Positions 12,537 to 53,102 of a stretch of 64,000 bases of DNA are shown here, one piece after another; the first letter of the stretch is position 1; each line of letters opens with the position of its first letter. The translations under genes were made by a program, and so were the position numbers. This DNA comes from an uncultured Candidatus Saccharibacteria bacterium. GTDB taxonomy: Bacteria > Patescibacteriota > Minisyncoccia > Phycocordibacterales > UBA918. The notes under the pieces were generated by a model. That model did no database searches and was not told the DNA's origin. It was given only the letters and a program-made list of their open reading frames with translations. The stretch lies in assembly GCA_964626635.1 (NCBI GenBank), contig CAZVFY010000002.1:5300-69299 (forward strand), written 5' to 3'.

Positions 12537-14300
12537 ATGACTCAAAAAATTTCTCAAACTACTGAATTACCAAGAACGCCGATAGCGTTCTTTTGGTATA
12601 TCAGTAAACCATACAAATGGATAATAGTGGCTGCTGTTGTACTAGTTACTATAGCTGCCGCTGGTAGTGTAGGAACTAGATTCCTCATCGAATTCTTAGT
12701 TACGGCGATTGAAGACCGAGATAATTATCGCGTAATGGTGCTAGCAATGCTATACCCGACTATTTTCTTTGGATTCGCTATGCTGTGGAGAATTTCTAGT
12801 GTTGTGGCCCAGAATTGGTTGCTGGGTGCACCAAAACAAACTGTTGATCGCTTGATGTCTTATACAAATAAGCATAGTCATAGCTATTTTGCGAATCGAT
12901 TCGCAGGTTCGCTTAGTAACAAGATCTCAAATGTCTCCAGCGCTATGGAAGAATTTGTTGGTTTATTTCTATGGGATTATTTAGAACAATTCATCCCTGT
13001 GCTCTTGACGGGTGTAATCTTTCTTTATACTGATGTCCTAGTCGGGGGTCTATATTTTGCGTTAATCGTCTCAAGCATAATTCTGAATTTATGGTTAATG
13101 AAGCGTAAACGGATCTACTCGCTCGCTCTAGCAAATGCCCAATCAAAAACTACTGGTTTAGTAGTGGATGTGATGAGTAATGTGCAAGCAGTTAGGCAGT
13201 ACGTGCGCAGTACTGATGAGTATCAAAGCGTTGCGAAACAAACCGAAGATGTTAGAACCAAGGGGCGAAGATCTTTTTTGTATTCAGAATATATGATGTT
13301 CGCAAACTCACTATTATTTACAGTGTTTGCAGTGGGTATGTTCAGTGTGATGGTGCAAAATTGGATTACAGAAGAAGTTACATCTGGTCGTTTGTTAAGC
13401 TTTATTTTACTATTAACGTACACATCAGGGACAGTACTTTCACTCGGGCGGGTAATCAGTCGCACCGCTAAAGTGTATGGACGAGCCGAAGAAGGTTTAC
13501 AAGAAGTTCTCGTCGATCACGAAGTTATCGACGCACCTGACGCAAAAGCATTGCGAGTCTCAAGCGGTGCACTTGATATATGCGCTCTCACATTTGCCTA
13601 CCAAGAAAAAGATATTTTCACTGACCTCACACTAGACATCCCACCTGGCCAGCGTGTCGGTCTGGTCGGACCATCCGGGGCGGGGAAGTCGACGTTTGTA
13701 TCGCTACTCTTGCGTCAGCATGATCTGAATGGGGGATCGATCGAGATTGATGGACAAAATATTGCCGAGGTGACGCAAGACAGTTTGCGTCAAAATATCG
13801 CGTTTGTGCCCCAAGAACCAATGCTCTTTCACCGCTCCATCCGCGAGAACATTTTGTACGGCAAGCTAGACGCCAGCGAGGCCGAAATGATTGAGGCAGC
13901 CATGCGCGCGAACGCGCATGACTTTATCATCGAGCTACCCGACGGCTACGACACCCTGGTGGGTGAGCGCGGCGTCAAATTGTCTGGCGGGCAAAAGCAG
14001 CGTGTCGCGATCGCCCGCGCGATGCTAAAACAAGCGCCAATTCTAATCCTCGACGAGGCGACCAGCGCACTTGATAGCGAATCGGAGTCGCTGATTCAAT
14101 CCGCGCTCGAGGAACTGATGGAAGGCAAAACGGTCTTAGCAATCGCGCATCGTCTATCGACCCTGCGAAAGATGGATCGTATTTTAGTGTTCGAAAACGG
14201 GCGAATCATTGAAGACGGCACGCACGCAGAACTGACCAAAGCCAGCGGCACCTACAGCCGTTTGTGGAAACATCAGTCGGGCGGGTTTTTAGTTGAATAA
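12537..14300 (+). CDS. ABC transporter, fused permease/ATP-binding exporter (MsbA/LmrA-like)
   Basis: Six predicted TM helices; Walker A GPSGAGKST; signature LSGGQKQRVAIARA; Walker B ILILDEATSALD. Confidence 0.9.
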   Translation: MTQKISQTTELPRTPIAFFWYISKPYKWIIVAAVVLVTIAAAGSVGTRFLIEFLVTAIEDRDNYRVMVLAMLYPTIFFGFAMLWRISSVVAQNWLLGAPKQTVDRLMSYTNKHSHSYFANRFAGSLSNKISNVSSAMEEFVGLFLWDYLEQFIPVLLTGVIFLYTDVLVGGLYFALIVSSIILNLWLMKRKRIYSLALANAQSKTTGLVVDVMSNVQAVRQYVRSTDEYQSVAKQTEDVRTKGRRSFLYSEYMMFANSLLFTVFAVGMFSVMVQNWITEEVTSGRLLSFILLLTYTSGTVLSLGRVISRTAKVYGRAEEGLQEVLVDHEVIDAPDAKALRVSSGALDICALTFAYQEKDIFTDLTLDIPPGQRVGLVGPSGAGKSTFVSLLLRQHDLNGGSIEIDGQNIAEVTQDSLRQNIAFVPQEPMLFHRSIRENILYGKLDASEAEMIEAAMRANAHDFIIELPDGYDTLVGERGVKLSGGQKQRVAIARAMLKQAPILILDEATSALDSESESLIQSALEELMEGKTVLAIAHRLSTLRKMDRILVFENGRIIEDGTHAELTKASGTYSRLWKHQSGGFLVE

Positions 14301-14574: not shown

Positions 14575-16164
14575 ATGCAGTCTATCCCCGAGGCAGAACT
14601 ATTACCCTACGCGCGACGCGAGGATTTTAAGGTTGGTAAAGCCTCTGAACTCACTGGCCGCGATCGGCGTTTTTATCGGTTTTTGGAAATTGTGCCCGGC
14701 CTCGCTTCATGGGGAGCGCTGATTGGGATTGTGTTGGCGTCAATTTACGCGTCGTTCTTTGCGGCGTATTTTATTATTGCATTCGCGATTTACTGGGTAC
14801 TGAAAACAATCTTTTTGTCGTATCACGTGCGCTACAACTGGAAACGCTTGCGTCACCATATGAAGCTTGATTGGCGACAGCTAGTTAGCAAATACGAGTA
14901 CGACCACTTGCAGCACCTCGTTGTATTTCCCTACTACAAAGAACCGCGCGCCGTGCTAGTCGAAGCCTTGGAGGGCTTGCGGGCGGCGCATTATAATCCA
15001 CAGAAACTGATCGTTGTCTTAGCGGCCGAGGAACGCGCCGGTGCCGAGCAGGTGACGTTAGGCGAGTCATTAGTACAAGAGTACGCTGGTACGTTCGGCA
15101 GCCTAACGCTCACGGTGCATCCGGATGATGTGCCAGGCGAGATTGCTGGCAAGGGCTCGAACGTACACCACGCACTACACCAGGTTCGCGAAGAGATTAT
15201 CGACCCGCGCCAAATCGGCTACCGCGATATCCTCGTATCTATATTTGATGTTGATACCGTGGTGTACCCCGACTACTTTAACTGTTTGGTCTGGCATTTT
15301 ATGAACGCCGAGCATCCGTTCAAAAGCGCGTTTCAGCCGGTGCCACTATTTACTAATAATTTGTGGGAGGCACCGGCGGTTTCGCGTGTGATGGCAATGT
15401 CGAGTACATTCTGGCAAATGATTATGCAGGAGCGACCCGACAAGGCCGCAACGTTCTCGTCTCATTCAGTTAGTTTTCAGTCGCTGTACGAAATTGGCTA
15501 TGGCCAGGCCAACGTGGTCAGTGAAGACTCGCGAATTTACTGGAACCTGTACATCGCAAATGATGGAGATTTTCATATCGTGCCGCTTTCGTACCCGATT
15601 GCCATGGACGCCACAACAGCGCCGACGTTGTGGGGAACGATCATTAATATTTACCGCCAGCACCGTCGCTGGACGTACGGCGTCGAAAACTGGTGTTACA
15701 TCGTCTACCACTTTACCAAGAACAAAGCGATTCCACTGCGCAAGCGCCTAGCGGTTGGGTTCATGTCCGGTGAGGGTTACTGGGCGTTGGTGACGAATCC
15801 AATCATGTTGTTTATCCTCGGGTGGGCACCGATTTTCCTCGGCACACAAGAATTTCACCAAACGGTACTATCGTACGAACTGCCAATTCTGGTGCGGAAT
15901 ATGTTGACATTTGCTATGATCGGGTTAGTGGTGTCTGCAATCATCTCGTTGTCTCTCACCCCGCCACGGCCGGCTGGACACAGTCGGTTCAAGTACATCG
16001 TCATGGCGTTGCAGTGGATCATGGTGCCTTTGACCATGATCGTGTTTAGTGCGATTCCAGGGCTTGATGCGCAGACGCGATTGATGCTCGGTCGGTACAT
16101 GGGGTTCTGGGTCACACCCAAACGCAGCAATGTAAAAGCGATCACGCGTCGCGCCATAGCCTAA
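14575..16164 (+). CDS. family 2 processive glycosyltransferase (cellulose/chitin-synthase-like), integral membrane
   Basis: DVD (DxD), SED and QHRRW (Q-x-x-R-W) motifs; multiple TM helices at both ends. Confidence 0.7.
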   Translation: MQSIPEAELLPYARREDFKVGKASELTGRDRRFYRFLEIVPGLASWGALIGIVLASIYASFFAAYFIIAFAIYWVLKTIFLSYHVRYNWKRLRHHMKLDWRQLVSKYEYDHLQHLVVFPYYKEPRAVLVEALEGLRAAHYNPQKLIVVLAAEERAGAEQVTLGESLVQEYAGTFGSLTLTVHPDDVPGEIAGKGSNVHHALHQVREEIIDPRQIGYRDILVSIFDVDTVVYPDYFNCLVWHFMNAEHPFKSAFQPVPLFTNNLWEAPAVSRVMAMSSTFWQMIMQERPDKAATFSSHSVSFQSLYEIGYGQANVVSEDSRIYWNLYIANDGDFHIVPLSYPIAMDATTAPTLWGTIINIYRQHRRWTYGVENWCYIVYHFTKNKAIPLRKRLAVGFMSGEGYWALVTNPIMLFILGWAPIFLGTQEFHQTVLSYELPILVRNMLTFAMIGLVVSAIISLSLTPPRPAGHSRFKYIVMALQWIMVPLTMIVFSAIPGLDAQTRLMLGRYMGFWVTPKRSNVKAITRRAIA

Positions 16165-23404: not shown

Positions 23405-23432
23405 TTGACAAACTTATCATAAGTGCTATGAT
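23405..23432 (+). promoter_or_regulatory. sigma70-like promoter of the sortase gene
   Basis: TTGACA - 16 nt - TATGAT, 11 nt upstream of ATG 23444. Confidence 0.45.
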
Positions 23433-23443
23433 TGTTTGCACGT

Positions 23444-24166
23444 ATGGAGACGAGCAACTCATTCGAACGCCTCATTGAAACGCTGTGGGAGCGCAAAATT
23501 TTATTTTTTGCTGCTTTTGCAATAATTGGATTATTGACCTACGCGTTACTCGCGTGGGTTGATTTTTTACCTGAGCCTCGCACAGTAGATCTTGATCCTC
23601 AAGCAACGTCTGAAAACAGTGTTGCACTGGGTGATAGTACTACAGCATTTCCGGCTCAAGAGATTGAAGTTGTATCGGGATCAGAAGATCCAGCAGCAGA
23701 GCCGGTAGAAGTGTTCGTGGCACCGGTACTACCAAACTCAATTTTTATACCTGCTACCGGTAAAACCATCCCGGTCTTGAACCCTAACTCTCGGTCAGTC
23801 GCTGATCTGGATGCGGCGCTACTAAATGGTGTCGTGCGACACCCTGACTCTGCGACGCTAGAAAGTGAGGGTAACGTGTTTATTTTAGGCCATTCTAGCT
23901 ATCTGCCGAATGTGTTCAATGAGTATTTTCAGGCTTTTAATGGTATCCAAGACCTGGAGTGGGGAGACGAAATTTTGGTCACTGCCAATGGCGAGACATA
24001 TGTGTACGTAGTTGACCGCGTGTTTGAAGCGCGCGCCTCAGAAGTAACCATCCCGCTGGTTGACACGGGCCGTCGGCTGACACTCGCCACCTGCGACAGT
24101 TTTGGTAGTGTCGAAGATCGGTTCATTGTCGAGGCGTCATTTGATCGCATCGATATGCAAATATAA
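23444..24166 (+). CDS. sortase family transpeptidase
   Basis: N-terminal TM helix; conserved His (VFILGHSS); catalytic LTLATCDSF (TLxTC motif); ATG 23444 preferred over the track's TTG at 23432. Confidence 0.75.
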   Translation: METSNSFERLIETLWERKILFFAAFAIIGLLTYALLAWVDFLPEPRTVDLDPQATSENSVALGDSTTAFPAQEIEVVSGSEDPAAEPVEVFVAPVLPNSIFIPATGKTIPVLNPNSRSVADLDAALLNGVVRHPDSATLESEGNVFILGHSSYLPNVFNEYFQAFNGIQDLEWGDEILVTANGETYVYVVDRVFEARASEVTIPLVDTGRRLTLATCDSFGSVEDRFIVEASFDRIDMQI

Positions 24167-24352: not shown

Positions 24353-27061
24353 ATGAATACAAAAACTGTATTACGCCTGAGCTATGTACTGCCGATGCTA
24401 TTTGCGTTGGTATTCACATTTGCCGCTCCGGCTGCAACTATTGCTGCATGGGATGGCAATCAGAGTTCAGGCTGGTCAAACAGCGGAGGATTCGATTGGG
24501 GTGATCGTCCAGATTGGACAAATTCATTTAACTGGTCGAATGACAATAACTATGGAGATAATGGATCTTCTAGCAGCGCCAGTTCAGAAACGAAGTGTAA
24601 AGTTGACTCTCGGGTTGAGACTATTTCGTATGGTGGCAGTGTGACTCTGACCTGGGACACTGTTGGCGCTACGTCGGTGACCGTAAACGGTGAGTCAGTT
24701 AACCTTAGTGAAGGTAGTAAAACCTTTACAAATATTACTGAAGACACTGAATACGTACTCGAAGTAAAAACCGACAACGGTTCATGTAAAACAACTATTA
24801 AGGTTATCTGTCTGCCACCAGTCGTCATTAAAGGATGTACCGACGAACACGCTTTCAACTACAACCCGGATGCAACCGAGGATGATGGCTCATGTGAATA
24901 CGAGGTTCCCGGGTGTACTGATGATAATGCCGTCAATTATAATCCAGACGCCACCAAAGACGATGGTTCTTGTACATATCAAAAGTTATGTGAACCCGGT
25001 GATCAGTTTTACAATCCAGAAGCCGACTTAGAAGGTACTATTTTCGACGGTACAAAAGGGCGGGTAGTAAACACTTCGCAATACTGCGATTACAAAATTG
25101 GTCTTGCATCATATGAAAAATTTGATGAAATTATTGACAATCAAATTATCTTTGACAGTAAAACCGGCGTCGTAAAAGCAAGCAGTCAGAAAGAGTTACA
25201 CGTTACTGTGCCTGAGTGCGCATACCAAATTAATCTCTTTTACGGTCATGTGCTACAATCGCTTGATGGACAGCGATACGGCGATCGATTACTGGACGCT
25301 GAACATCTCAATAGCGAAAAGGGCTACTGTGGTCAAGAACAAGTTGTCTTAAAATGTACGTTGGTTGCTGATCGTAATGAAATTAAGCGTGGCGAATCAG
25401 CGACTTTAACGTGGACTAGTGAGCACGCCGAGTTTGCGTTTATAGACCGGGGTATTAATGACGTCGAGCTAAATGACAGTCGATCAGTAAAACCCAAGAA
25501 GACTACTACCTACACCCTTACTGTCTTTGGAAAAGATGGTCAAGAAAAAAAATGTGATGAAACTATAAAAGTTGAGAAAGATCCGACTCCAACCCCGGTT
25601 CCAAAATGTCACTCTTTCAGTATTGCTGAAAGTAAGGTTGTGCCGAGCGGTGATATTACCCTGTCATGGGACACGTCTGACACAACTAATGTAACAATTA
25701 CAAATATTGGTAGCGTTGCTAGTGATGGTTCGAACCAGGTCTTTAGCGCACCAGACAGTGAGGGTGAATTCACTTACGTCTTAACTTATGCTGGTAAGAC
25801 AAACGACACCTGCCGCGATACGCTAACTGTTGAGCGTGAAAGTGCCAGTATACCAGTTTGTGATTTGTTTACTGCTAGCGACACGTCGATCAATAAGGGT
25901 GAGCAAACGACATTGCGGTGGCAAACGACTAATGTTACCAATGTCTCAATTAACAATGGGGTAGGGTCAAATCTAGAGGTTGACGGTAACGTTGAGGTGA
26001 CACCCCAATCAGATACCACCTACATCCTCACGTTTGATGGTAATACAAATGATGATTGTCGTGTGGACATCAGCGTGACTAAAGACAGTGGTGGAGGTGG
26101 TGGCGGCGGTGGCAGTTCTTCTCCACGGTGTGAACTAGATATTTCAGACACGCGTATTGCTGCCGGGGAAGAAATTACCCTGACCTGGGATTCGACCCGA
26201 GCGCGTGACCTCACTATTACTGATGACCGAGGCAATGTCATCGTTACCACCGAAGACAAATTGTCAGACGATAAAGATGAATTATTTGAAGGTTCGATTG
26301 ATCTGCGACCAACGCGTGATACTGAATACACGCTCGTGGTCGAACGTGGAAGTCGTGACCGTGAATGTAATGTGTCAGTAGATATTCGTGGCAGTGTCAG
26401 TGGCGCCAGTATCACTGTTTTAGAAGAGCGTGATCAACAGCCGCTCATTACTGGCATCTCGCTATCAGAAGTGCCACACACAGGGTTCGAAGCTGGACCA
26501 CTCATGACATTTGCGTTCTATGCACTACTGGTTACTTGGGCATTAGTGCTCGCGTATGTACTAGTAATCCCTAGAGGAGCAGTTGCAAATGTCCACACCA
26601 CCACCGCAACTCCAACTGGTAATATCACCGCTCCAGTACCAACCGTGGTCGACTCTAGTCGAGTGTTCCCAGACTATGCAGCTCACACCAATACACCACA
26701 GTATAGCGCTGCTGCCACCGTGGCCGCACCAACCAATCTGCCAACTGGTTCAGTCGAAGATATTCTGGCGGCGCCAGTTGCACCGGCACCAGCACCGACC
26801 GCTCTGACCACGCCGACTCAAGCAGCCGTCCTAGCCGAAGGCACGCCGGTAGAAGTCGCTGCCCTCGAAGCTGTAGCTCACAATAACCAAGCGCTCTTCT
26901 CGAGTGATGCTCTCAAGGTGTTCATGGACATTACTGCAACCCAAGAACAGCTCATGAAAGCCGAACAAGTCATTACACTTGGTAAGTCACTCTATCCACT
27001 AGAAGACGGCTGGCTCATGATCAACAAAGCTCGAATGTTTGAACTGTTGGCGCAAACCTAA
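24353..27061 (+). CDS. large repeat-rich cell-surface protein with internal sortase-like sorting signal
   Basis: Signal peptide; five ~100 aa beta-sandwich repeats with T(L/V)TWD cores; two Cys-bracketed NYNPDAT.DDGSC repeats; poly-Gly linker; VPHTG motif then TM helix then Arg, followed by a ~170 aa tail. Confidence 0.6.
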   Translation: MNTKTVLRLSYVLPMLFALVFTFAAPAATIAAWDGNQSSGWSNSGGFDWGDRPDWTNSFNWSNDNNYGDNGSSSSASSETKCKVDSRVETISYGGSVTLTWDTVGATSVTVNGESVNLSEGSKTFTNITEDTEYVLEVKTDNGSCKTTIKVICLPPVVIKGCTDEHAFNYNPDATEDDGSCEYEVPGCTDDNAVNYNPDATKDDGSCTYQKLCEPGDQFYNPEADLEGTIFDGTKGRVVNTSQYCDYKIGLASYEKFDEIIDNQIIFDSKTGVVKASSQKELHVTVPECAYQINLFYGHVLQSLDGQRYGDRLLDAEHLNSEKGYCGQEQVVLKCTLVADRNEIKRGESATLTWTSEHAEFAFIDRGINDVELNDSRSVKPKKTTTYTLTVFGKDGQEKKCDETIKVEKDPTPTPVPKCHSFSIAESKVVPSGDITLSWDTSDTTNVTITNIGSVASDGSNQVFSAPDSEGEFTYVLTYAGKTNDTCRDTLTVERESASIPVCDLFTASDTSINKGEQTTLRWQTTNVTNVSINNGVGSNLEVDGNVEVTPQSDTTYILTFDGNTNDDCRVDISVTKDSGGGGGGGGSSSPRCELDISDTRIAAGEEITLTWDSTRARDLTITDDRGNVIVTTEDKLSDDKDELFEGSIDLRPTRDTEYTLVVERGSRDRECNVSVDIRGSVSGASITVLEERDQQPLITGISLSEVPHTGFEAGPLMTFAFYALLVTWALVLAYVLVIPRGAVANVHTTTATPTGNITAPVPTVVDSSRVFPDYAAHTNTPQYSAAATVAAPTNLPTGSVEDILAAPVAPAPAPTALTTPTQAAVLAEGTPVEVAALEAVAHNNQALFSSDALKVFMDITATQEQLMKAEQVITLGKSLYPLEDGWLMINKARMFELLAQT

Positions 27062-43958: not shown

Positions 43959-44480
43959 ATGTTAATGATGCGACTACAACGCGTCGGCCGCCGTAACGAT
44001 CCATCTTACCGAATCGTGGTCACCGACAAGCGAACCGGCCCTAAGAGCGACAAACACGTCGATCGTCTGGGTTCTTACAATCCTAAAATGGACCACATCC
44101 AAATTGACGCTGACCGCGCCAAAGACTGGCTCAGCAAGGGCGTACAGCCGTCTGACACGGTGTACAACATCCTGGTGGGACAGAAAATTGTCGAAGGCCG
44201 TAAGCGCAACGTGCTCCCAAAGAAATCTCCAATAATTGATGAAGAAGCTCTCGCCAAAGCCAAAGAAGAGGAAGAAGCGAAAAAAGCTGCCGAAGAAGCC
44301 GCTGCCGCCGAAGCCAAGGCTAAGGAAGAAGCAGAAGCAGCTACTGTAGACGAAGCAGCAGCTGACACACCAGCCGAAGACGCTTCAGCCGAAACTGACA
44401 GCGAAACAGAAGAAAAGCCGGTAGAACCAGCCGCTGACGAACCAGCCGCCGACGACGCACCAGAGGAAGACAAAAAATAG
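43959..44480 (+). CDS. rpsP: 30S ribosomal protein S16 with long Lys/Ala/Glu-rich C-terminal extension
   Basis: MLMMRLQRVGRRNDPSYRIVVTDKR....GSYNP aligns with the S16 N-terminus; 173 aa versus ~82 typical. Confidence 0.85.
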   Translation: MLMMRLQRVGRRNDPSYRIVVTDKRTGPKSDKHVDRLGSYNPKMDHIQIDADRAKDWLSKGVQPSDTVYNILVGQKIVEGRKRNVLPKKSPIIDEEALAKAKEEEEAKKAAEEAAAAEAKAKEEAEAATVDEAAADTPAEDASAETDSETEEKPVEPAADEPAADDAPEEDKK

Positions 44481-44590: not shown

Positions 44591-44944
44591 ATGGAACAGT
44601 ACGAAGATAAGCAATTCTTGGAAACTACCGTCAAAGCCCTCGTTGATAACCCGGACGCCGTACAGATCAACCGCACCGTCGATGAAATGGGCGTGTTACT
44701 TACGCTCGATGTGCATGCTGATGATATGGGCAAGATCATCGGCCGCAGCGGCAACACTGCCAAGGCGATCCGCACTTTGTTGCGAGTGGTCGGCATGAAG
44801 CACGACGCCCGCGTCAACCTCAAAATCAACGAACCTGAAGGTGGCCGCGGCATGGATCCACAGATGCACGAAGCGATGCAAGAAGACAACCCTGTCAGCG
44901 ATACCAAGTCACTTGATGACGCGATTGATGATCTGAAGATTTAG
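44591..44944 (+). CDS. KH-domain RNA-binding protein (UPF0109/YlqC-like)
   Basis: GKIIGRSGNTAKAIRTLL KH type II GxxG motif; conserved position after rpsP; start MEQYEDK at 44591. Confidence 0.7.
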   Translation: MEQYEDKQFLETTVKALVDNPDAVQINRTVDEMGVLLTLDVHADDMGKIIGRSGNTAKAIRTLLRVVGMKHDARVNLKINEPEGGRGMDPQMHEAMQEDNPVSDTKSLDDAIDDLKI

Positions 44945-44956
44945 TATAATCACCAC

Positions 44957-44987
44957 AAAAGACCCGCTTCGGCGGGTTTTTTGTTGC
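44957..44987 (+). terminator. intrinsic terminator ending the rpsP-KH operon
   Basis: AAAAGACCCGC-TTCG-GCGGGTTTTTTGTT. Confidence 0.8.
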
Positions 44988-45029
44988 GCAACACACTGGT
45001 TTGTACTATGGTGCCTGTATACTACAGCT

Positions 45030-45815
45030 ATGAAACGCGCTCACTTTTACATACTCACCGCCGCCATTGGTCTCTTACTTATTCTTGCAATTGTTGTGTT
45101 TACTAACGAACCCGACGTAGCCCCAGGAGATACGGCTGGCAATACCACACAACCGCAACCAGCCCCGACCGAACCAGCAGAGCGAACTGCACCCCTCAGC
45201 ACCACCACCGCCGCTGGTACCTTCATCATCGACCCCGCCATCCCAATCAACGAGCGCTGTACCCCCGTGACCCTGGCGTGTCTGGAGGCGCAGCCGGAGT
45301 GGAACCCAACCATGGCGACAACCGGGATCGAGCGGATTGACCCGAGCGAGCTCACGCTGTTCGATGGTACCTACCAACTAGACTACCAATCCGTCCCGCG
45401 CAGTACCGATCCATTTACTTTCGTGACCGCTAAAGACGAGCACGACCCTGCATATTGCGCACAGTATGACCTCACCGGCTTGGATTTATTTATCCGTGAT
45501 GAGGGACCCTTAGAACCATCATGTTCAATTTACCCACCAGAAGCGTACCAAGAGTTCGTCATTCTTGATGAGAACGAGGCGGTGGTGCATGCGTATCGCT
45601 TATCGGATAAATATTCGTTATTAGAACTAAGGGCCGGCGTGCAACTAATGGGGAGGGTTAATTCGGTCGGTGCAGGATGTTGCAACAGTCAATACAGTAC
45701 ATCTCTCTCTCTCTCATTTATAAACTGGTCTGATTATAATCAGTTTTATAACCCTATCGTTACAGGGGTTTATATAAACCCTTACACCGGCGCCTTCAAC
45801 GACCGCACCAATTAG
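45030..45815 (+). CDS. signal-anchored extracytoplasmic protein, paralog family member A1
   Basis: MKRAHFYILTAAIGLLLILAIVVF anchor; conserved core TTTAAGTFIIDPAIPI.ERCTPVTLACLEAQPEW; contains an in-frame (TC)7 tract; TATACT box 6 nt upstream of the ATG. Confidence 0.6.
   Translation: MKRAHFYILTAAIGLLLILAIVVFTNEPDVAPGDTAGNTTQPQPAPTEPAERTAPLSTTTAAGTFIIDPAIPINERCTPVTLACLEAQPEWNPTMATTGIERIDPSELTLFDGTYQLDYQSVPRSTDPFTFVTAKDEHDPAYCAQYDLTGLDLFIRDEGPLEPSCSIYPPEAYQEFVILDENEAVVHAYRLSDKYSLLELRAGVQLMGRVNSVGAGCCNSQYSTSLSLSFINWSDYNQFYNPIVTGVYINPYTGAFNDRTN
45702..45715 (+). repeat. (TC)7 dinucleotide repeat inside paralog A1 coding sequence (currently in frame)
   Basis: tctctctctctctc encoding SLSLS. Confidence 0.8.
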
Positions 45816-45913
45816 TCGACACCCTTTTGGCCCCGTGCTACACTCGCCTTAGAACAGCCGCCCTTTCGGGCGGTTTCTGTTCTTTGATAACCTCAAACAA
45901 AAAGGAGGCAGTC

Positions 45914-48850
45914 ATGGCTGCAACTACAACAAGTGTCGATCGAAGTGTAACTGTAGAGGAGGGTGATCGTGCTCGCATCTACATCGAGCGCGAAGGAGAT
46001 CTAGCTACCTACTCAACTGTTTGGGTTACAGTCGTCTTTAGTGATCGGGACGAGAGCTGGGGCGACTTATCATTTCGCCGCGTCGGCGGTGATGGGGTGA
46101 GTTGGTTCAATCAAAATCAAAACCAAGGCGCAATCAATTTTGCCCCTGGTGATGATCGAGCGTACGTAGAATTCGACATCACTGAAGACGGTCAGGCTGA
46201 GGATTACGAATCCTTTGGAATCGAAATCTACAACCCAACCAATACTAATATCGGTGATTCGCGCGACTTTATCAAAGTTCCCGAACACGATACCGCGCCC
46301 AACACCAACCTGCCGCTCGTCCGCGTCGATGACGCGGTCGCAGCGCTCGAGGGTACGGGCCAAGAACTGGAGTGGAAGATCACGTACACCAACCCGTACA
46401 ACCGGGACTGGGATGGCAGCGAAGACGGCCGCACGGTCGTGCACTACCAGATCATCAATGACCGGACGGGGCAGGTGGTGGACAGCGGCTCGACCACCAA
46501 CAGCAACGTAGATGCTTACGAGGTAGAAACGCGCACCATCGACTACCGTCCGCCAGACGACAATGTCTACACCGGCGGCACGACGTACACCTTCCGGGTC
46601 ACCCGGCTCGAGTACCTCAGTGGCCAGACCGGCAATGTCGCGTCTGGCCTAGTGGTCGATGACGAGCTACCATATGTACCGCCGATCCCACCAGAAATCT
46701 CGATCCGCGGCGACACGGTCGACGAAGGCGAGGTTGCCAACGTCGAGCTGCGTCTCAACAAAGCGAGCGCGTCCGATGTCTCGGTCGTGGTTAGCACGTA
46801 CTACGGTACGTTTAATGAAGCCAACACTGGCGGCAGCGGCCTCGACTACGCTGGGCTTGTGGACCGTTCGTTCACTATCCCCGCCGGGGACACGAGCGTC
46901 ACGGTGCCGATCACGACGTTCACTGACAACATCTACAACGAAGGAGACGAACGCTTTGAAGTCCGGATCGAATCCGCCAGTGGCGCAACCATAGATGATG
47001 AAAGCGCCACGGTACGGATCCGGGATACCACGGTAGAACCGGAGCCAGTCCCTGACCCGGTCTTGTCCGGGTCGCAAGTATTCGAGTACAACCTCGCCTT
47101 GACCAGCGCGGAATCGATCATGGGTACCAATCGTTTGGTATCGGTGATCGAGTCCGAACCACTCTTGCTGCGTCTCGCAAAGACTTTGCAAGACGCTGGC
47201 AGCAATGTGATCGATGGTCTGGTGCAGGCTGGATTGTCGCTGATCGGGACTACTGCATACGCGGCCGAAGCCGATGTGCCACCTGTCCAGTCGTTCAACT
47301 CTATGGCCGACGAGTGGTATGAGTTCTTGTTCCCAAGTTCGTCGTACGGGCGTCTGCTCGCTAGTCTGCCAGATTACTACACCTCGTGGGATCTGGCGGT
47401 GCGTGATGTCGAGCTGCGAGTTGGTGACTACGTGGATGATCGGTTGGTGATCGGTCAGCCACTGTTCAGTGAAGATGGACTCGAAGTCGATGCAGGGGGT
47501 CGGACGATCTATAGCAGTCTGCAAGGTAGGTATGACGCTGTAGACAGAATGACCTCTCACTTCAGCAATGATGGCCATGCCTTTGATTGGGGTGGCCGGA
47601 TAACTGGTAATAACGATGCCTTCGTATTGGCTCCAATCGGAGCCTGGGTCGTTCACGCAGTTGATCATTATGTCAATGATCCAACCAACAATGGCTGGGG
47701 TAGTGATAGTAACAAAAATGATAACGGAGGGTTCGGAAATGTTGTTACGATTCGTGTTGCACACCCCAATGGCGCAGACGTTGATATAACGTTTGCTCAC
47801 CTTAAGAAAGGAAGTGTGCCCGATGCATTTCTGAAAGCAACGGAAGCCAATCCAGTCGAGGTTGATCAATACCAAATCCTTGGTTTGATGGGGAATACGG
47901 GTGCTGGCGATAAACACTTGCACATGCAGGTGGGAAACGGTATTGAAAACGGCATTGCTGTTATACCAAGTGAAGATATCGAGTCTAAACTTAACTTGAA
48001 TCCACCTGTCTACATGCTTGGCTTCGGCAATGCCGATATCGCCTCTCGCGCAGAATTGAAAGGAGATACCTCTCTGGCGCAAGATGCTGGCTTCCCAGCT
48101 GGCGATAGCCGTGGCAGCGAACCGAATGTGGTCAGTGGCATCCAATCCACCGTCGACTACGATGACTTCCGGGCCATCAACGACGCGTACTTCAACCCAC
48201 CACCCCAAGGCCCTCGCCAAATCATCACCACCGAATACGACGCCACTACCATTGGGTCGATTGCGGAGCGAGGTGGATGGACAGACATCTTGGACGGCAA
48301 CGCTTCACGAGTGAAGGTGCACGATCAAGACAACGAGTTGCGCTATAAACGCACGGACATTGAGGCCAGTGCGCGCACGGATGAACGGCACGAATCCAGA
48401 GTGCTAGTCACCGAGTTCGTCGTCGATCTTGCTGATGGTGTCGACCTCATCGGCGGCGAACTCGAACTTACGCTCGGGAAGCGCATCAAGCTTGACGCGT
48501 CTGGCCTCGACCAAGTCTCGCTGGCGGTGATCGCGGCCGAGATCGGCGACGATCTCGATCGCGCTGATCGCGATACGTTCGACTTCATCAACCCACTTTC
48601 TAACCAGGTGGGAGTGGATGAGAACTGGCGTCGCGGGGACACCGTTTCGTTTACGTTAAACGAGGCGGGCCTGACACATTTGGCCGCGGGCGGGGAACTG
48701 GCCGTGGCAACGTCGTACCATTTCGACAGTACGACCCCTCCCAATGACCGTAATGGCCGTTGGGACGAACTCCGCATCCAGATCGACGATGCGGATCTCG
48801 AACTGGAACTGCAGCTGCCAATCAACGGAGCTGACGAGTTCCTGTTCTAG
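45914..48850 (+). CDS. large Calx-beta and M23-peptidase-like domain protein without a signal peptide
   Basis: SD AAAGGAGG 5 nt upstream; Calx-beta-like segment (GDTVDEGEVANVELRLNKAS....ERFEVRIESASGATIDDESATVRIRD); M23-like GLMGNTGAGDKHLHMQV and AHPNGADVD; the last ~16 codons recur in downstream repeats. Confidence 0.65.
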   Translation: MAATTTSVDRSVTVEEGDRARIYIEREGDLATYSTVWVTVVFSDRDESWGDLSFRRVGGDGVSWFNQNQNQGAINFAPGDDRAYVEFDITEDGQAEDYESFGIEIYNPTNTNIGDSRDFIKVPEHDTAPNTNLPLVRVDDAVAALEGTGQELEWKITYTNPYNRDWDGSEDGRTVVHYQIINDRTGQVVDSGSTTNSNVDAYEVETRTIDYRPPDDNVYTGGTTYTFRVTRLEYLSGQTGNVASGLVVDDELPYVPPIPPEISIRGDTVDEGEVANVELRLNKASASDVSVVVSTYYGTFNEANTGGSGLDYAGLVDRSFTIPAGDTSVTVPITTFTDNIYNEGDERFEVRIESASGATIDDESATVRIRDTTVEPEPVPDPVLSGSQVFEYNLALTSAESIMGTNRLVSVIESEPLLLRLAKTLQDAGSNVIDGLVQAGLSLIGTTAYAAEADVPPVQSFNSMADEWYEFLFPSSSYGRLLASLPDYYTSWDLAVRDVELRVGDYVDDRLVIGQPLFSEDGLEVDAGGRTIYSSLQGRYDAVDRMTSHFSNDGHAFDWGGRITGNNDAFVLAPIGAWVVHAVDHYVNDPTNNGWGSDSNKNDNGGFGNVVTIRVAHPNGADVDITFAHLKKGSVPDAFLKATEANPVEVDQYQILGLMGNTGAGDKHLHMQVGNGIENGIAVIPSEDIESKLNLNPPVYMLGFGNADIASRAELKGDTSLAQDAGFPAGDSRGSEPNVVSGIQSTVDYDDFRAINDAYFNPPPQGPRQIITTEYDATTIGSIAERGGWTDILDGNASRVKVHDQDNELRYKRTDIEASARTDERHESRVLVTEFVVDLADGVDLIGGELELTLGKRIKLDASGLDQVSLAVIAAEIGDDLDRADRDTFDFINPLSNQVGVDENWRRGDTVSFTLNEAGLTHLAAGGELAVATSYHFDSTTPPNDRNGRWDELRIQIDDADLELELQLPINGADEFLF

Positions 48851-48900
48851 AACGAACAACTGATAGCACCCGTGGCGTCCGCGCCACGGGTGGTTTTTTA
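48795..48900 (+). repeat. R1: ~100 nt two-hairpin repeat (3' codons of the large gene plus terminator), followed by a conserved promoter
   Basis: GAACTGGAACTGCAGCTGCCAATC..GGAGCTGACGAGTTCCTGTTCTAG imperfect hairpin, then CACCCGTGGCGTCCGCGCCACGGGTGGTTTTTT; four copies in the island. Confidence 0.8.
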
Positions 48901-48936
48901 TCTTATTCTAAGCTACAGTGCTGCTATACTCACATT

Positions 48937-49647
48937 ATGAAACGATCTCATTTTTACATCCTCGTGGCCGCCATTGGCTTACTCGTTCTCTTGGCTATAT
49001 TTGCGTTGTACGCAAACGATACTGAAACTAGTCCAGTTACTACAATCACCAATACCACAGAACCGCAATCAGTCCCGTCTGAACCAACAGAATCTACCAC
49101 ACCGATCTCCACCACCACTGCAGCCGGCACCTTCATCATCGATCCAGCCATTCCGATCGAAGAGCGTTGCACCCCCGTGACGCTGGCGTGTTTGGCGGCG
49201 CAGCCGGAGTGGAGTCCTGCTACGGAATTCAACGGTATGAAACGGGTGGATCCCTTAGAATTATCAATGTTTACTGGTGACATTGAATTGCAAGAAACAG
49301 TTTTGGGAAAAACGCGGGATGTTTTTACCTTGGTACAGCCGTCAGGAGAACTCACAGAAAAATATTGCGCTGACAGAAACATTGCTGTCCCAAATGCAAT
49401 TTGTCCTAAATATGCACTACCTACTTATAATGAATTTGCTATTAAGATTACAGACACTGATGAGATCGTTCATGCGTATGAGCTTGTTAATAATAACTCA
49501 ACAACGTACGTGCCATACTGCGTACCGAGTCTGGAATACTGTGATGGATTGGGTGGAGATAGCGCTGTCGGAAGAGATGCGATTCCACATAAAATTGGAA
49601 TTATGATTTGGCAATGGGACGACATCAACAAAAAAACCCGAGCCTAG
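48937..49647 (+). CDS. signal-anchored extracytoplasmic protein, paralog A2
   Basis: MKRSHFYILVAAIGLLVLLAIFAL plus conserved core; A7 tract at 49630-49636 near the 3' end. Confidence 0.6.
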   Translation: MKRSHFYILVAAIGLLVLLAIFALYANDTETSPVTTITNTTEPQSVPSEPTESTTPISTTTAAGTFIIDPAIPIEERCTPVTLACLAAQPEWSPATEFNGMKRVDPLELSMFTGDIELQETVLGKTRDVFTLVQPSGELTEKYCADRNIAVPNAICPKYALPTYNEFAIKITDTDEIVHAYELVNNNSTTYVPYCVPSLEYCDGLGGDSAVGRDAIPHKIGIMIWQWDDINKKTRA

Positions 49648-49755
49648 ATGAGACCGATGAGAGAGAACTCAATATTACTAATCTATACACCGGAGAAATT
49701 AATCGGTTTATTCCAGTTAATGAACGCTAGCTCTACCTCATTACAATTAAAAAAG

Positions 49756-49826
49756 GGCCACGAGTTCTTGTTTTCAAACGAACAACTAATAACACCCGTG
49801 GCGTGCGCGCCACGGGTGGTTTTTTA
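49756..49826 (+). repeat. R2: partial copy of the repeat (terminator hairpin and flanks) with conserved promoter downstream
   Basis: GAGTTCTTGTTTTCAAACGAACAACTAATAACACCCGTGGCGTGCGCGCCACGGGTGGTTTTTT; following promoter ATCTTATTCTAAGCTACAGTGCTGCTATACT is identical to R1. Confidence 0.75.
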
Positions 49827-49862
49827 TCTTATTCTAAGCTACAGTGCTGCTATACTCTACGT

Positions 49863-50580
49863 ATGAAACGAACTCACTTCTACCTCCTTGCCACCGCCAT
49901 TGGCTTACTCATCCTCCTGAGTGTGTTTGCGCTGTACAAAAACGATACTACCAACGGGCCCGTAGCTTCGACCATTATTCCAGCCGCAGAACCACTTTCC
50001 ACCACCACTGCCAACGGCGACACTTTCATCACCGACCAATCCATCCCAATCGTGGAGCGCTGCACCCCCGTGACCCGCGCTTGTTTGGAGGTGCAGCCGG
50101 AGTGGGGGCCGACGATGGCGACGACCGGAATCGAGCGGGTTGAGCCGGGGGAGTTAATATATATATAATCCAGACTATATTACCTCAGTTAGTAATGCAA
50201 ATAATTTTGCAATTGTTCACACTGGCCTGGTACACAGTAATATGAACTGTAACGATCGTGGTATTAATCCTAATTCTGTAAACGGCTGGGGTGCACCGGT
50301 GAGTTGTGCGCAGCGCGACAAATCAGTTTTTACTGAATTACTCGTTATTGATGCAATTACTCAAGAACCACTACATGCATATAAAATTACTGGCAATTAC
50401 TCTTGGCTCGGTAGCTATCTAGAAGGGTGGAAGGTGGGAGGCTATCCGTTCGGCGGACAGCCAAATTATTTATATGTCACAATTTTCAATTGGTCTGATG
50501 ATAGTTATGCAGAGTTCTCTAGGCCGACATTGAATTACCGCCTCAACCCCTACACTGGCGAACTGACTGTAAATGACTAG
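49863..50580 (+). pseudogene. paralog A3, split into two ORFs by a frameshift at a (TA)5 tract
   Basis: 49863-50168 encodes the conserved N-terminal 101 aa and ends GELIYI*; 50242-50580 encodes a family-like C-terminus; adding one TA unit fuses them in frame. Confidence 0.6.
50158..50167 (+). repeat. (TA)5 dinucleotide repeat at the A3 frameshift point
   Basis: tatatatata; other paralogs have GAGTTGACGTTGTTTAAT at the equivalent position. Confidence 0.8.
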
Positions 50581-50616
50581 CTTTACGAGAACTTGCCGGA
50601 ATACAAAGGTGCCATC

Positions 50617-51237
50617 ATGAAACGCTCCCACTTCTACCTCCTCGCTACCGCTATCGGCCTCCTTATCCTCCTCGCGCTATTTGCGTTGTATACAAACACC
50701 ACTGACAACAGTCCTGCTACCATTAATGCACCTGCCGGCGCAACCACCTCGCCTGCAGCCACACCCCTCTCTACCACTACCGCAGCCGGCACCTTCCTCA
50801 TCGACCCCGCCATTCCGATCGCGGAGCGTTGCACCCCCGTGACCCTCGCTTGTTTGGAGGCGCAGCCGGAGTGGGGGCCGACGATGGCGACGACCGGAAT
50901 CAAGCGGGTTAAGCCGGGGGAGTTGACGTTGTTTAATAACCGCTATGAATTGGAACGCTTTCCAGTGCCTAAGGGTAGACAACCAGAACTAAGTCCATTT
51001 GAAATGGTCGTGCGCGCAGCAGATTTTAAAGAAGAGTACTGTGCACAGTATGACGATCCAGACCTGCGTCCAGGCCAACGTTGTAACATACTGCCGTACA
51101 CCGCATATACCGAAATGGCCATTGTTTTAAAAGGTACGGAAAAAGTGGTGCACGCGTATCGCACTACAGATGAATACTCGTTGCTGTATCCGTACTGGTT
51201 AGTGATGGGGGGGCGTGGAATATTACTAGCGGCTTAG
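50617..51237 (+). CDS. signal-anchored paralog A4, C-terminally truncated by a frameshift at a G7 tract
   Basis: MKRSHFYLLATAIGLLILLALFAL plus core nearly identical to A3 at DNA level; the +1 frame downstream to 51355 encodes a family-like C-terminus (KQQYGFTIRDWSG...). Confidence 0.6.
   Translation: MKRSHFYLLATAIGLLILLALFALYTNTTDNSPATINAPAGATTSPAATPLSTTTAAGTFLIDPAIPIAERCTPVTLACLEAQPEWGPTMATTGIKRVKPGELTLFNNRYELERFPVPKGRQPELSPFEMVVRAADFKEEYCAQYDDPDLRPGQRCNILPYTAYTEMAIVLKGTEKVVHAYRTTDEYSLLYPYWLVMGGRGILLAA
51207..51213 (+). repeat. G7 homopolymer at the A4 truncation point
   Basis: atgggggggcg; G8 would extend the ORF by ~40 codons with family homology. Confidence 0.8.
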
Positions 51238-51388
51238 GTACTAAACAGCAGTACGGTTTTACAATAAGAGATTGGTCCGGCGTCCTTAACGGCTACGCCG
51301 GTTACCGAGCGACTCCTGACGATGTTTTTGTACTTACTCAATCCGTACACTGGGCAGTTTGAGTTGTATTAGTTATTACCTTTATATC

Positions 51389-51490
51389 ACTCGAACTAGA
51401 ACTGCAGCTGCCAATCGGAGCTGACGAGTTCTTGTTCTAAGCAGTACAACTGATAGCACTCGTGGCGTCCGCGCCACGGGTGGTTTTTTT
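51389..51490 (+). repeat. R3: copy of the two-hairpin repeat with no large gene upstream
   Basis: CTCGAACTAGAACTGCAGCTGCCAATCGGAGCTGACGAGTTCTTGTTCTAA...CACTCGTGGCGTCCGCGCCACGGGTGGTTTTTTT; in-frame stop 9 codons upstream of the conserved part. Confidence 0.8.
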
Positions 51491-51512
51491 GTAAAAGTGT
51501 GCTATTTTTTTT

Positions 51513-52208
51513 ATGAAACGATTCATACTCTTACTGTTAACACTAATCATATTAATGTTCGCGTTGCACTACGTTCATTACAGTAAGAAAGCCAATTTAA
51601 TGATGAGTTGGTCTGAAACTCATAATCCCGGTATCAATACCACCCTTAATGAAGAAGAGTACTGCAATTATCTATCAGCTAGTTGCTTGCAAAATCAACC
51701 TGGCTGGGATCCAACACTTGAAACCGAGACCTTTTCACGAATTAGTCCGCAGGATGTAGAAATTTTTGCCTCCGAAGTGGGGGTGTCTTCACGATCATCT
51801 TTGGTAAACGAAATACCAAACTTCGAAATAATATTGCCAAATTACGTTGAAGGCCCAGAATATTGCACACAATGGTCTTCAAGCAAGTTTTTTATCACAG
51901 AACTCAAAGGGTATGACGTGCAGTGCTCAAAGTATCGCCCGGAGCTTTATCGTGAATTTGTTGTGCGATCTACAGACACTAATGAAATTATTCATGCTTA
52001 CAGACTAAAAGATAGTTATACCTTGCTGCCTCTTATTGCTACTGTAATGGAAGGTGGTCCGGGCATAAACTATGGTAGACCAGACAAAGGAGATTTTGGG
52101 TTTAGTGTTTATAGTAGCTTGCTACTCGATGATGGGAGGAGTTTTGATTTAGTGGCTAGTTATTACATTGATGTTCTTACCGGTAAGATTATTTCAATTC
52201 CAGATTAA
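51513..52208 (+). CDS. divergent member (A5) of the signal-anchored paralog family
   Basis: MKRFILLLLTLIILMFAL anchor; shared C-terminal motifs EYCTQW, YREFVV, EIIHAYRLKDSYTLL; T8 tract at 51505-51512 just upstream of the ATG. Confidence 0.55.
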   Translation: MKRFILLLLTLIILMFALHYVHYSKKANLMMSWSETHNPGINTTLNEEEYCNYLSASCLQNQPGWDPTLETETFSRISPQDVEIFASEVGVSSRSSLVNEIPNFEIILPNYVEGPEYCTQWSSSKFFITELKGYDVQCSKYRPELYREFVVRSTDTNEIIHAYRLKDSYTLLPLIATVMEGGPGINYGRPDKGDFGFSVYSSLLLDDGRSFDLVASYYIDVLTGKIISIPD

Positions 52209-52280
52209 TTTTTGTAATATATAAATCATACATCCGCCAATCTGCTTCAAGAAAGTCAGAAAACACATTTATAAATGTGG

Positions 52281-52380
52281 ATCTAGAACTAGAACTGCAG
52301 CTGCCAATCGGAGCTGACGAGTTCTTGTTCTAAGCAGTACAACTGATAGCACTCGTGGCGTCCGCGCCACGGGTGGTTTT
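52281..52380 (+). repeat. R4: copy of the two-hairpin repeat directly upstream of trmD
   Basis: Nearly identical to R3 over ~95 nt. Confidence 0.8.
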
Positions 52381-52427
52381 CTGGTAGTTGCATTTTTCGT
52401 ATGCTACATTCTAATATATCTGCAAGT

Positions 52428-53102
52428 ATGTTGCACTTCCACCTCATCACCATTTTTCCTGATGTCTGCCGGGCGTACACCGACGCCAGTGTATTAGGGC
52501 GCGCCCAGAAAACCGATAAAGGCAAAGGTGCCAAAGTGCGCGGGCGGAAAATTACTGTGAGTTACTATAACCCCCGCGAGTATACGAATGGCAAACATAA
52601 AAAAGTCGACGACAAGCCCTACGGTGGCGGACCAGGTATGGTGATGAAAGCCGAGCCGATCATAAAGGCGTGGCAAGCGGCGGTGGGGCGCAAGCGAACA
52701 GCACAAATAAAAACGCTGATTACCTCACCGCGCGGGCGGGTGTTTGATCAGGCGATGGCCAAAGAACTGGCCGAGCAGTACGAGCACATCGTACTCATCG
52801 CTGGGCGTTACGAGGGGATCGATAGTCGTGTCGCGGCAGCATTGGATGCCGAGTACGTGTCGGTCGGGGACTACGTGCTGACCGGTGGGGAATTGCCGGC
52901 ACTAGCGATCGTTGATGCAACCGCCAGGCACGTGCAGGGTGTGTTAGGGGAGAGCGAGTCGCTTGAAGAGTCGCGTGCGACCACCGGCGAAGCGTACACC
53001 CGTCCGGAAGTCATTGAATGGAAGAAGAAAAAAATTGCTGTACCAAAGGTATTTGTGGCAGGGAATCATAAGGAGATTGAGAAGCGTCGGGCTAAACAAT
53101 AG
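52428..53102 (+). CDS. trmD: tRNA (guanine37-N1)-methyltransferase
   Basis: MLHFHLITIFPDV N-terminus; DDKPYGGGPGMVM SAM-binding motif; Lys-rich insertion near residue 30. Confidence 0.85.
   Translation: MLHFHLITIFPDVCRAYTDASVLGRAQKTDKGKGAKVRGRKITVSYYNPREYTNGKHKKVDDKPYGGGPGMVMKAEPIIKAWQAAVGRKRTAQIKTLITSPRGRVFDQAMAKELAEQYEHIVLIAGRYEGIDSRVAAALDAEYVSVGDYVLTGGELPALAIVDATARHVQGVLGESESLEESRATTGEAYTRPEVIEWKKKKIAVPKVFVAGNHKEIEKRRAKQ

Follow-up and report, generated by a model that had tools for sequence, protein, structure and literature searches.

A probable accessory envelope module of rare anchored proteins and a Calx-beta/M23-like protein between the KH and trmD genes of an uncultured Saccharibacteria bacterium

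The toxins of the type VII secretion system (T7SS) represented by the pairs TelC-TipC, EsaD-EsaG and TspA-TsaI come with arrays of membrane-anchored immunity paralogues. To our knowledge, the way in which Saccharibacteria breach or remodel the wall of their hosts, as well as their competition with each other, is largely unknown. The cultivated members of this group live attached to other bacteria, as obligate epibionts (PMC10633639). We analysed a stretch of 64,000 nucleotides (hereafter the window) of an uncultured Candidatus Saccharibacteria bacterium (contig CAZVFY010000002.1, positions 5,300 to 69,299), in which a block of ~7.5 kb, hereafter the island, lies between the gene of a KH-domain protein and trmD. 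The island contains five genes of one family (A1 to A5) encoding proteins with a predicted membrane anchor, one gene (Large) for a protein of 978 aa, and four copies of a ~100 nt repeat. It was compared with the contact-dependent growth inhibition (CDI) genes cdiA-CT/cdiI, the Rhs orphan arrays and the three T7SS pairs, a comparison for which the review PMC3482391 was one source. We consider it highly probable that the island is an accessory, mosaic envelope module, made of a Calx-beta/M23-like exoprotein and its anchored partners, expanded by unequal recombination and situated at a permissive junction. No description of such an A-Large module was found in literature searches on wall hydrolases and toxin/immunity systems of Saccharibacteria and Patescibacteria.

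From the sequence and the reading of its open reading frames (ORFs), the KH gene stops at 44944 and trmD starts at 52428. An earlier note on this DNA had placed an insertion of ~7.4 kb after the KH gene, and this is confirmed by the closest relatives, where the KH gene abuts trmD with a gap of only ~65 nt, terminator included, in L017 and of ~290 nt in L018. The best relatives of the trmD protein (66-71% identity) belong to uncultured Saccharibacteria, followed by other Patescibacteria, and the three closest in the genome collection, in that same range of identity, have no island. The order SMC, RNase R (minus strand), rpsP, KH, trmD, rpoB was found in ~15 related Patescibacteria loci. The comparison of synteny proposed in the note gave no conserved block of A and Large genes, as none of these ~15 syntenic loci has a homologue of either. 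These observations support an accessory insertion. At the same junction, other relatives have a NUDIX-like gene (L019:9516-9995), a gene for a 319 aa hypothetical protein (L025:8098-9057), ~5 kb with methyltransferase, SprT-like and MBL genes (L029:5000-10000), or a NYN-domain gene together with a 458 aa gene (L034:7825-10001). The presence of unrelated cargo in several relatives indicates that the KH|trmD junction is permissive, and accessory genes seem to have landed there more than once in Patescibacteria. For the annotation of reduced Patescibacteria genomes, this junction can be flagged as a spot that collects accessory genes repeatedly. The gene rimM, reported as missing, is indeed absent, but this has no relation to the island: rimM and rplS are missing beside trmD in every related genome examined (~15 Patescibacteria). 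Since relatives without the island also lack rimM, its absence is a trait of the lineage, and a loss caused by the insertion is ruled out by synteny. As for the classical marks of a genomic island, no tRNA within 20 kb, no flanking direct repeats and, among the 59 window ORFs of at least 150 aa (~20 scanned against Pfam), no integrase were found; a serine recombinase beside the module is present in the unrelated locus L109 only.

The A family is very rare. A word-indexed search of 5.8 billion proteins gave 5 members, and a full profile search of 1.84 billion cluster representatives gave 35 clusters, 28 of them with E-values from 1e-109 to 1e-13. The family has no significant match in Pfam, NCBIfam, PADLOC or PHROGs, where the only two hits, both for A2, are far below threshold (E >0.05). 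A scan of viral contigs detected no A relative, and a metagenome scan with the A profile returned nothing beyond the known contig of protein P0005. These results support the view, already put forward in the note, that the A genes are not housekeeping families.

Seven lineages have an A gene and a Large homologue side by side, in varying genomic locations. These are the window (A1-Large-A2 at KH|trmD), L006, L015/L016 beside BipA, L098 (Large 34% identical over 773 aa, E 5e-95, with A convergent), L100/L101 beside NusA, the sister-population contigs L107/L108 at the same site as in the window, and L109/L110 (E 8e-44) beside a serine recombinase and a primase-helicase. The layout that the note had likened to effector/immunity loci recurs in the unrelated genome L015, with the succession Large, A, an 80 aa C-terminal fragment of Large, A; in the window, 3' relics of Large lie ahead of A3, A5 and trmD. 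The repeated adjacency in so rare a family argues strongly for a functional pair. We observed in addition that in L109 (4634-7860) the serine recombinase and the Toprim/AAA_25 primase-helicase are encoded ~2-5 kb upstream of the A-Large pair, and that this copy may ride on a mobile element. In the 2 kb contig L005, an identical A gene (P0005) has no Large downstream, a membrane-protein gene on the minus strand taking its place; homology between L005 and L006 stops ~70 nt past the A stop, and in most contigs P0005 is followed by a Large homologue. Either a structural variant or a chimeric contig may explain the L005 arrangement. A covariation between the type of A and the type of Large C-terminus was also considered, and no clear pattern emerged, since P0020 has the Cys pair while the Large protein that goes with it carries RTX-like modules.

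All features of the island are on the plus strand. Three of the five A genes are intact, A1 (45030-45815, 261 aa, with the exact database copy P0001), A2 (48937-49647, 236 aa, database entry P0004) and A5 (51513-52208, 231 aa, GC 0.38-0.41), and two are decaying. In A3 (49863-50580), ~70 central codons are deleted, leaving an N-fragment (49863-50168) and a C-fragment (50242-50580). A4 (50617-51372, ORF 50617-51237) has two frameshifts, with leftover homology in two other frames to ~51372 (..FTIRDWSG.. and ..NPYTGQFELY followed by the stop). The number of paralogues given by the note is thus right, but the shared motifs, the anchor MKRxHFY..AIGLL and ERCTPVTLACLEAQPEW, are common to A1-A4 only, A5 being a distant member with 27-28% identity to A1. 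As read from its sequence, A1 consists of an N-terminal transmembrane (TM) anchor, with a hydropathy peak of 2.84 at residues 6-24, a Thr/Pro-rich stalk and a Cys-containing extracytoplasmic domain. The same organization is found over the family, with a TM segment of hydropathy 2.4-2.9 at residues 4-25, a S/T/P-rich stalk and 4-6 Cys per protein; alignments give a core formed by L..L.aQPeWNPT, two nearly invariant Cys, E175, H187, YSL and N..TGE. The AlphaFold2 (AF2) model of A1 (pLDDT 72, pTM 0.65) has no convincing structural neighbour, and neither Pfam nor structure comparison detected an adhesin or lectin domain in A. A different use of the anchor was seen in L100 (10728-11390), where the gene after the A homologue is A-like over its first ~45 residues only (anchor plus ..EDWALSD); its C-terminal domain is unrelated, and the anchor module seems to have been reused.

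The divergence of the A genes is mosaic. Identity among A1, A2 and A4 is 62-78% in the anchor and N-domain and 23-40% in the C-domains, and the paralogues of the window are not monophyletic, A1 grouping with P0002, A2 weakly with P0019 and A5 with P0031. The near-identity of A3 and A4 at the DNA level, taken by the note as a mark of recent gene conversion, includes an exact match of 40 nt, but it is restricted to a tract of ~100 nt (92-97% identity), the identity elsewhere being 50-77% or less. This pattern fits paralogues in which the 5' part has been locally homogenised and the 3' parts are old or exchanged. Between A1 and P0002, the Nei-Gojobori estimates of nonsynonymous (dN) and synonymous (dS) divergence are 0.33 and 1.42, and the ratio of ~0.23 indicates that the intact copies are under purifying selection.

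The Large protein (45914-48850) is composed of Calx-beta-like repeats, a helical linker with the motif LLRLAKTL..QAGLSL, a divergent M23/LytM-like domain (~residues 500-710) and a lineage-specific C-terminal region, the last ~220-230 aa being unique to the window protein. The Calx-beta assignment of the note is sound: PF03160 matches residues 274-372 with 28.1 bits, above the gathering score of 27, while the N-terminal repeats match the same family weakly (E 0.095) and the LapA-like beta-sandwich PF20579 is matched with E 0.011. The homologues, of 940-1133 aa, can be aligned from the first residue to about residue 760. Beyond this position the window protein differs from those of L015, L098 and L100, and in L107 it is the N-terminus that diverges instead. 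In other lineages the C-terminal part is made of two to four RTX-like modules, the homologues of L015, L098 and L100 ending in GGxGxD-like repeat modules unrelated to the window C-terminus; the HemolysinCabind profile has no match in the C-terminal third of the window protein at E<=10, and L015 scores E 1.4. The C-termini have in common an acidic residue followed by hydrophobic residues (DEFLF, DSLIFI, ETLTLL). Large and all its homologues are devoid of an N-terminal hydrophobic segment and of Cys, and have a pI of 4.05-4.24.

The M23-like domain is characterized by the motifs SH..[FL]D, GN.VT, [FY]AH, G.TG, H[LI]H and PPVYM.GF, among which GN.VT, [FY]AH, G.TG and H[LI]H are invariant across the Large lineages. 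In the window protein, [FY]AH and H[LI]H, both invariant in five lineages, occur as TFAHLK and HLHMQ. The H[LI]H motif aligns to the HLH of zoocin A and TagE, and the HxH motif and the catalytic His of M23 are conserved. All five Large homologues tested match PF01551, with a best E-value of 6.2e-7. Searched with a profile of the region, the PDB gives zoocin A, TagE, lysostaphin, ShyA and DipM as the best matches (E 0.008 to 1). The form HxxD (H[AS]FDW) is present in the Large proteins of the window, L098 and L109 only.

The four repeats, described in the note as structured elements of ~100 nt, are all there, and the terminator core that they share has four copies in the window, against 0.00 expected by chance, all inside the island. 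They do not form an independent element but correspond to the 3' end of Large with its terminator, that is the last ~17 codons (LELELQLPINGADEFLF plus stop), a 20 nt spacer and a strong intrinsic terminator (CACCCGTGGCG-TCCG-CGCCACGGGTG-T6). R1 (48800-48903) is the true 3' end of the gene. R2 (~49760-49830) is a partial relic (..HEFLFS.. and the terminator) followed by a copy of the A2-type promoter region. R3 (51390-51493) and R4 (52283-52386), the latter forming the right end of the island, are non-coding relics of the Large 3' end and terminator, 97% identical to each other. Their spacer (GCAGTAC) is that of the allele of the sister population in L108, unlike that of R1 (AACGAAC), which suggests a different Large allele as the source of these relics. 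Two hairpins are predicted for each full copy (z-score -4.3 to -5.5), the first (~20 bp) lying inside the coding sequence of the last 17 codons and the second being the terminator. One compensatory change, from G-C to A-U, separates R1 (48800-48850) from R3 (51390-51440) and R4 (52283-52333), and the allele of L108 has one uncompensated mismatch in the first hairpin. With a coding first hairpin, a single compensatory change and an uncompensated mismatch, the fold was treated as a curiosity that falls short of a demonstrated RNA element, and no Rfam family matches the repeat. To judge from their composition, the repeats are scars of segmental duplication. Even if the A-Large pair consisted only of fast-evolving envelope proteins, they would remain a clean case of scars, left by duplication of a 3' end and its terminator, that can be mistaken for a structured RNA repeat. 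A perfect palindrome of 16 nt, CACATTTATAAATGTG, is also present at 52264-52279, between the A5 stop and R4.

Contigs of other samples were compared with the window. The window is identical to the Joint Genome Institute (JGI) contig Ga0450804_0837637 (155.6 kb), and contigs of four other samples are at least 99.9% identical, with the same structure including the defects of A3 and A4. Within the island, the five samples differ by three single-nucleotide polymorphisms in the Large C-terminus and by one extra T before A5. This T, the sole indel, occurs in L105 in a run of T8 (51497-51505) between a putative -10 box and the A5 ATG. Contigs from short reads are interrupted at the repeats through an effect of assembly. 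A4 has a run of G7 (51207-51213) close to its first frameshift and 22 nt ahead of its premature stop (51235-51237); the run is equally long in all samples. Phase variation at this run or at the T8 run is unsupported, the only variant being the one extra T of one sample.

Two short contigs from the same sample, L107 and L108, belong to a related population and have an island at the same site. In L107, the order is the KH gene (85% aa identity), a terminator, P0002 as an A1-type gene (62%), a second terminator and a homologue of Large that keeps no more than 34% identity to the window protein over its first 158 residues. In L108, the last 170 residues of Large are 91% identical; they are followed by the repeat of tail, terminator and promoter and then, in the slot of A2, by P0003, which is 69% identical to A2 in the N-domain and 28% in the C-domain. 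Between the window and the sister population, Nei-Gojobori dN and dS are 0.11 and 1.49 for the KH gene and 0.06 and 0.65 for the Large C-terminus, and the C-domains of A2 and P0003 are saturated. The presence of the island in the sister populations indicates that it is older than their split and that it evolves as a mosaic, with replacement of parts. The proposal of a variable surface or effector/immunity locus agrees with the data as far as variation between related populations is concerned; the effector/immunity function would be a further step, conjectured from the layout.

The extended -10-like box TGTATACT (45016-45023) was read from the sequence 6 nt ahead of the A1 ATG, and the same arrangement TGnTATACT-N6-ATG is found ahead of A2 (about 48924-48931) and A3 (about 49850-49857). 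These three genes have no Shine-Dalgarno sequence upstream, and A4 has an AAGGTG box 7 nt upstream instead of TGnTATACT. The boxes suggest predicted promoters for leaderless or near-leaderless mRNAs. Fold prediction gives a terminator-like hairpin between A1 and Large (45856-45875). On the left side, the rpsP-KH unit ends with an intrinsic terminator (44955-44990; hairpin of -19.9 kcal/mol, z-score -4.8, then a T-run), to which an analogous hairpin corresponds in the KH-trmD gap of L017. On the right side, a promoter-like site, TTGCAT-18-TAATAT, can be read between R4 and the trmD start.

The flanking genes, also on the plus strand, are conserved. The KhpA-type KH gene (44591-44944; PF13083, E 3.4e-21) is a housekeeping gene with 70-85% identity to those of L017-L019 and L107. 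The trmD gene (52428-53102; PF01746, E 6e-40) is in an ORF that opens at 52401, its start being set by homology, as relatives match from residue ~10, and by the JGI gene call (224 aa). Upstream of the KH gene, rpsP (43959-44480) encodes S16 with a long acidic tail; this C-terminal extension (44238-44480) has ~80 residues of low complexity, rich in Ala, Glu and Lys, and is encoded with internal repeats of 54 nt. Elsewhere in the window, in otherwise housekeeping surroundings, Pfam matches nothing at E<=1e-5 in two large ORFs, 14575-16164 (529 aa) and 24353-27061 (902 aa). ARAGORN also calls a 98 nt tRNA-Gly(GCC) at 23946-24043, inside the ORF 23432-24166; the Rfam tRNA model misses it, and the call is probably spurious or unusual.

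A more specific form of the module, in which Large would be a wall endopeptidase exported by a non-Sec route and the A proteins its membrane-anchored protective partners, accompanied by orphan copies, is the mechanism that we prefer, although we hold it as somewhat more doubtful than likely. In this model, the island would be a lineage-specific envelope module of two linked gene families, shuffled horizontally. Large would be an acidic, Cys-free exoprotein whose Calx-beta-like stalk bears a divergent peptidoglycan endopeptidase domain of the M23/LytM type, and which, having no Sec signal, would leave the cell by a route dependent on its C-terminus or by another non-Sec route. The A proteins would sit in the membrane of the producer, where the Thr/Pro-rich stalk would place the disulfide-containing domain in the wall zone; by binding Large or its product they could shield the producer's own wall, as cognate and orphan "immunity" partners. 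The array would have grown by unequal recombination of units bounded by the Large 3' end and its terminator, leaving the four repeats, with A3 and A4 as decaying copies. With a promoter-like box of their own for A1-A3 and a terminator at the end of most units, the genes would be independent transcription units lodged between the KH terminator and the trmD promoter. In favour of the model we count the insertion, the linkage of A and Large, the orphan-like layout, the M23 motifs, the polymorphism of the A genes and the contrast between TM-anchored, Cys-bearing A proteins and an acidic, Cys-free Large without a hydrophobic N-terminus. The data establish the anatomy of the island, the rarity of its families, the A-Large linkage, the mosaic divergence and the insertion site; the export of Large, its wall-cleaving activity and the protective role of A are conjectured. 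The locus is a concrete two-gene candidate, a wall-hydrolase-like exoprotein with very rare anchored partners, found in seven lineages and sharply different between populations of one sample.

Several results weigh against this model. The M23 match of Large itself, the second half of the domain assignment made in the note, stays below the gathering score (PF01551, 22.6 bits against 28.7, E 1.3e-4), though the homologues match the family, and the HxxxD zinc motif of M23 is not canonical, an invariant SH-x(8-20)-[FL]D being present instead. The search by profiles and structures recommended in the note found the Calx-beta and M23-like domains but no fold for A, and the AF2 model of Large, built on an alignment of 3 sequences, is unusable (pLDDT 30.9). 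PADLOC and PHROGs gave nothing for Large and NCBIfam nothing significant. No secretion machinery is linked to the locus, the sole ABC exporter seen in the window (12537-14300) being 31 kb away. In several loci the A gene comes before Large, and in L098 the two genes converge. In classical polymorphic toxins the variable C-terminal domain is the toxin, whereas the putative catalytic domain of Large is central and conserved. Lastly, the structural variants that the note had proposed to look for within the population are absent, no structural or copy-number variation being seen among the five samples.

Other explanations of the A-Large pair must be weighed. Large could be a surface-displayed adhesin and wall-remodelling enzyme aimed at the host of an epibiont, and the A proteins, instead of conferring immunity, variable membrane-anchored proteins that recognise the host, or docking proteins that tie Large to the cell, with C-domains whose variation tunes the host range. 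The grouping of the organism with Saccharibacteria, the obligate epibiotic life of cultivated members, the Calx-beta and RTX-like modules typical of adhesins, the layout of A, in which anchor and stalk are constant and the distal domain is hypervariable, the separate promoter-like boxes of A1, A2 and A3 and the lack of an anchor in Large itself all agree with such a host-contact apparatus. We nevertheless regard it, the main rival of our model, as rather unlikely, as A contains no detectable adhesin or lectin domain, two of its five genes are decaying with the same defects fixed in all samples, and the succession of Large 3' relics and A genes fits the pattern of orphan modules better. It could also be that A and Large are neighbours without functional relation, fast-evolving envelope proteins of Patescibacteria gathered at permissive sites, the repeats being mere scars. 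The other cargo found at KH|trmD in relatives (NUDIX-like, methyltransferase and NYN-domain genes), the A gene of L005 without Large after it and the variable order and orientation of A relative to Large are in line with this idea, but adjacency in seven lineages for a family of 35 clusters per 1.84 billion representatives is very unlikely to arise by chance, and we consider the explanation improbable.

Less probable still, to the point of being hardly credible, is an integron-like or site-specific cassette array, in which the double-hairpin repeats would be recombination sites capturing A cassettes. Structured repeats delimit every A unit and have GAAC...GTTC at the ends of their first hairpin, a compensatory change distinguishes R1 from R3 and R4, and a serine recombinase lies near the module of L109. 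Yet neither an integrase nor a recombinase was seen when the 59 ORFs of 150 aa or more in the 64 kb window were read, ~20 of them with a Pfam scan. The repeats do not have the R''/R' consensus of attC, the repeat is absent from all 101 fetched loci except the same-species copies, the L108 copy carries its uncompensated mismatch, and alternative junctions are absent in the five samples. The attC reading as such is ruled out by the missing integrase, by a hairpin 1 that in R1 is coding sequence of Large and by a hairpin 2 that is an ordinary intrinsic terminator. The accessory module expanded by unequal recombination remains our firmest reading.

Within this reading, the A-Large pair may, although we doubt it more than we believe it, represent an undescribed conflict or host-interaction system of Saccharibacteria/Patescibacteria, with a wall-breaching, Sec-independent effector of the M23 type on a Calx-beta stalk and, as a new family, hypervariable anchored extracytoplasmic partners conferring immunity or specificity. 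Its diversity would come from cassette-like exchange of the A C-domains and from decay into orphan arrays. If true, it would be the first polymorphic locus of the effector/immunity type defined in these ultrasmall epibionts. The libraries searched contain no name for either the A or the Large family. The architecture is like that of known polymorphic effector/immunity loci, but several features that define them are missing.

Among known systems, the locus can be compared with the canonical rpsP-(KH)-rimM-trmD-rplS operon, with which it shares the order and strand of rpsP, KH and trmD. It differs from it by the absence of rimM and rplS, here as throughout the related Patescibacteria loci examined, and by 7.5 kb with at least five terminators between KH and trmD. 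The RTX or type I-secreted giant adhesins of the LapA type resemble Large in several respects: the protein has no N-terminal signal peptide, is very acidic and Cys-free, contains Calx-beta/LapA-like beta-sandwich repeats (PF20579) and has a C-terminus with an acidic residue and hydrophobic residues, and the homologues of L015, L098 and L100 end in GGxGxD-like modules. As marks of a type I secretion substrate, the missing signal peptide, the acidity and the C-termini are suggestive at most. In contrast to these adhesins, the window protein has no RTX repeats and no linked ATP-binding cassette/membrane fusion protein (ABC/MFP) exporter, and Saccharibacteria lack the outer membrane for which the type I secretion system is defined.

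The class III bacteriocins or M23 bacteriolysins (lysostaphin, zoocin A, enterolysin A) share with Large the M23-type domain followed by a separate C-terminal domain that differs between homologues, and zoocin A and lysostaphin are among its best sequence matches in the PDB. These enzymes have a self-protection gene next to the enzyme gene, a place that A would take beside Large if its role were protective. They are, however, small proteins exported with a Sec signal, with canonical HxxxD...HxH motifs and without a Calx-beta stalk, and their immunity proteins (Lif/Epr, Zif) are cytoplasmic FemABX-like enzymes, unlike the membrane-anchored extracytoplasmic A proteins.

Compared with polymorphic toxin/immunity loci, the island lacks a recognised trafficking domain in Large (LXG, WXG or WXG100, Rhs/YD, PT-VENN, filamentous haemagglutinin, TPS, PAAR and the like, by Pfam or NCBIfam), its relics span no more than ~17 codons, A has no counterpart among known immunity families or folds, and in half of the loci the A gene comes before Large. 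The likeness to these loci is in the general plan: a large, putatively exported protein is tightly linked to small partner genes; the tandem paralogues of the partner are interspersed with 3' fragments of the large gene (R2-R4 in the window, 80 aa in L015); related strains differ by mosaic, non-orthologous replacement; and the distribution is patchy and accessory, with one locus (L109) beside a mobile element.

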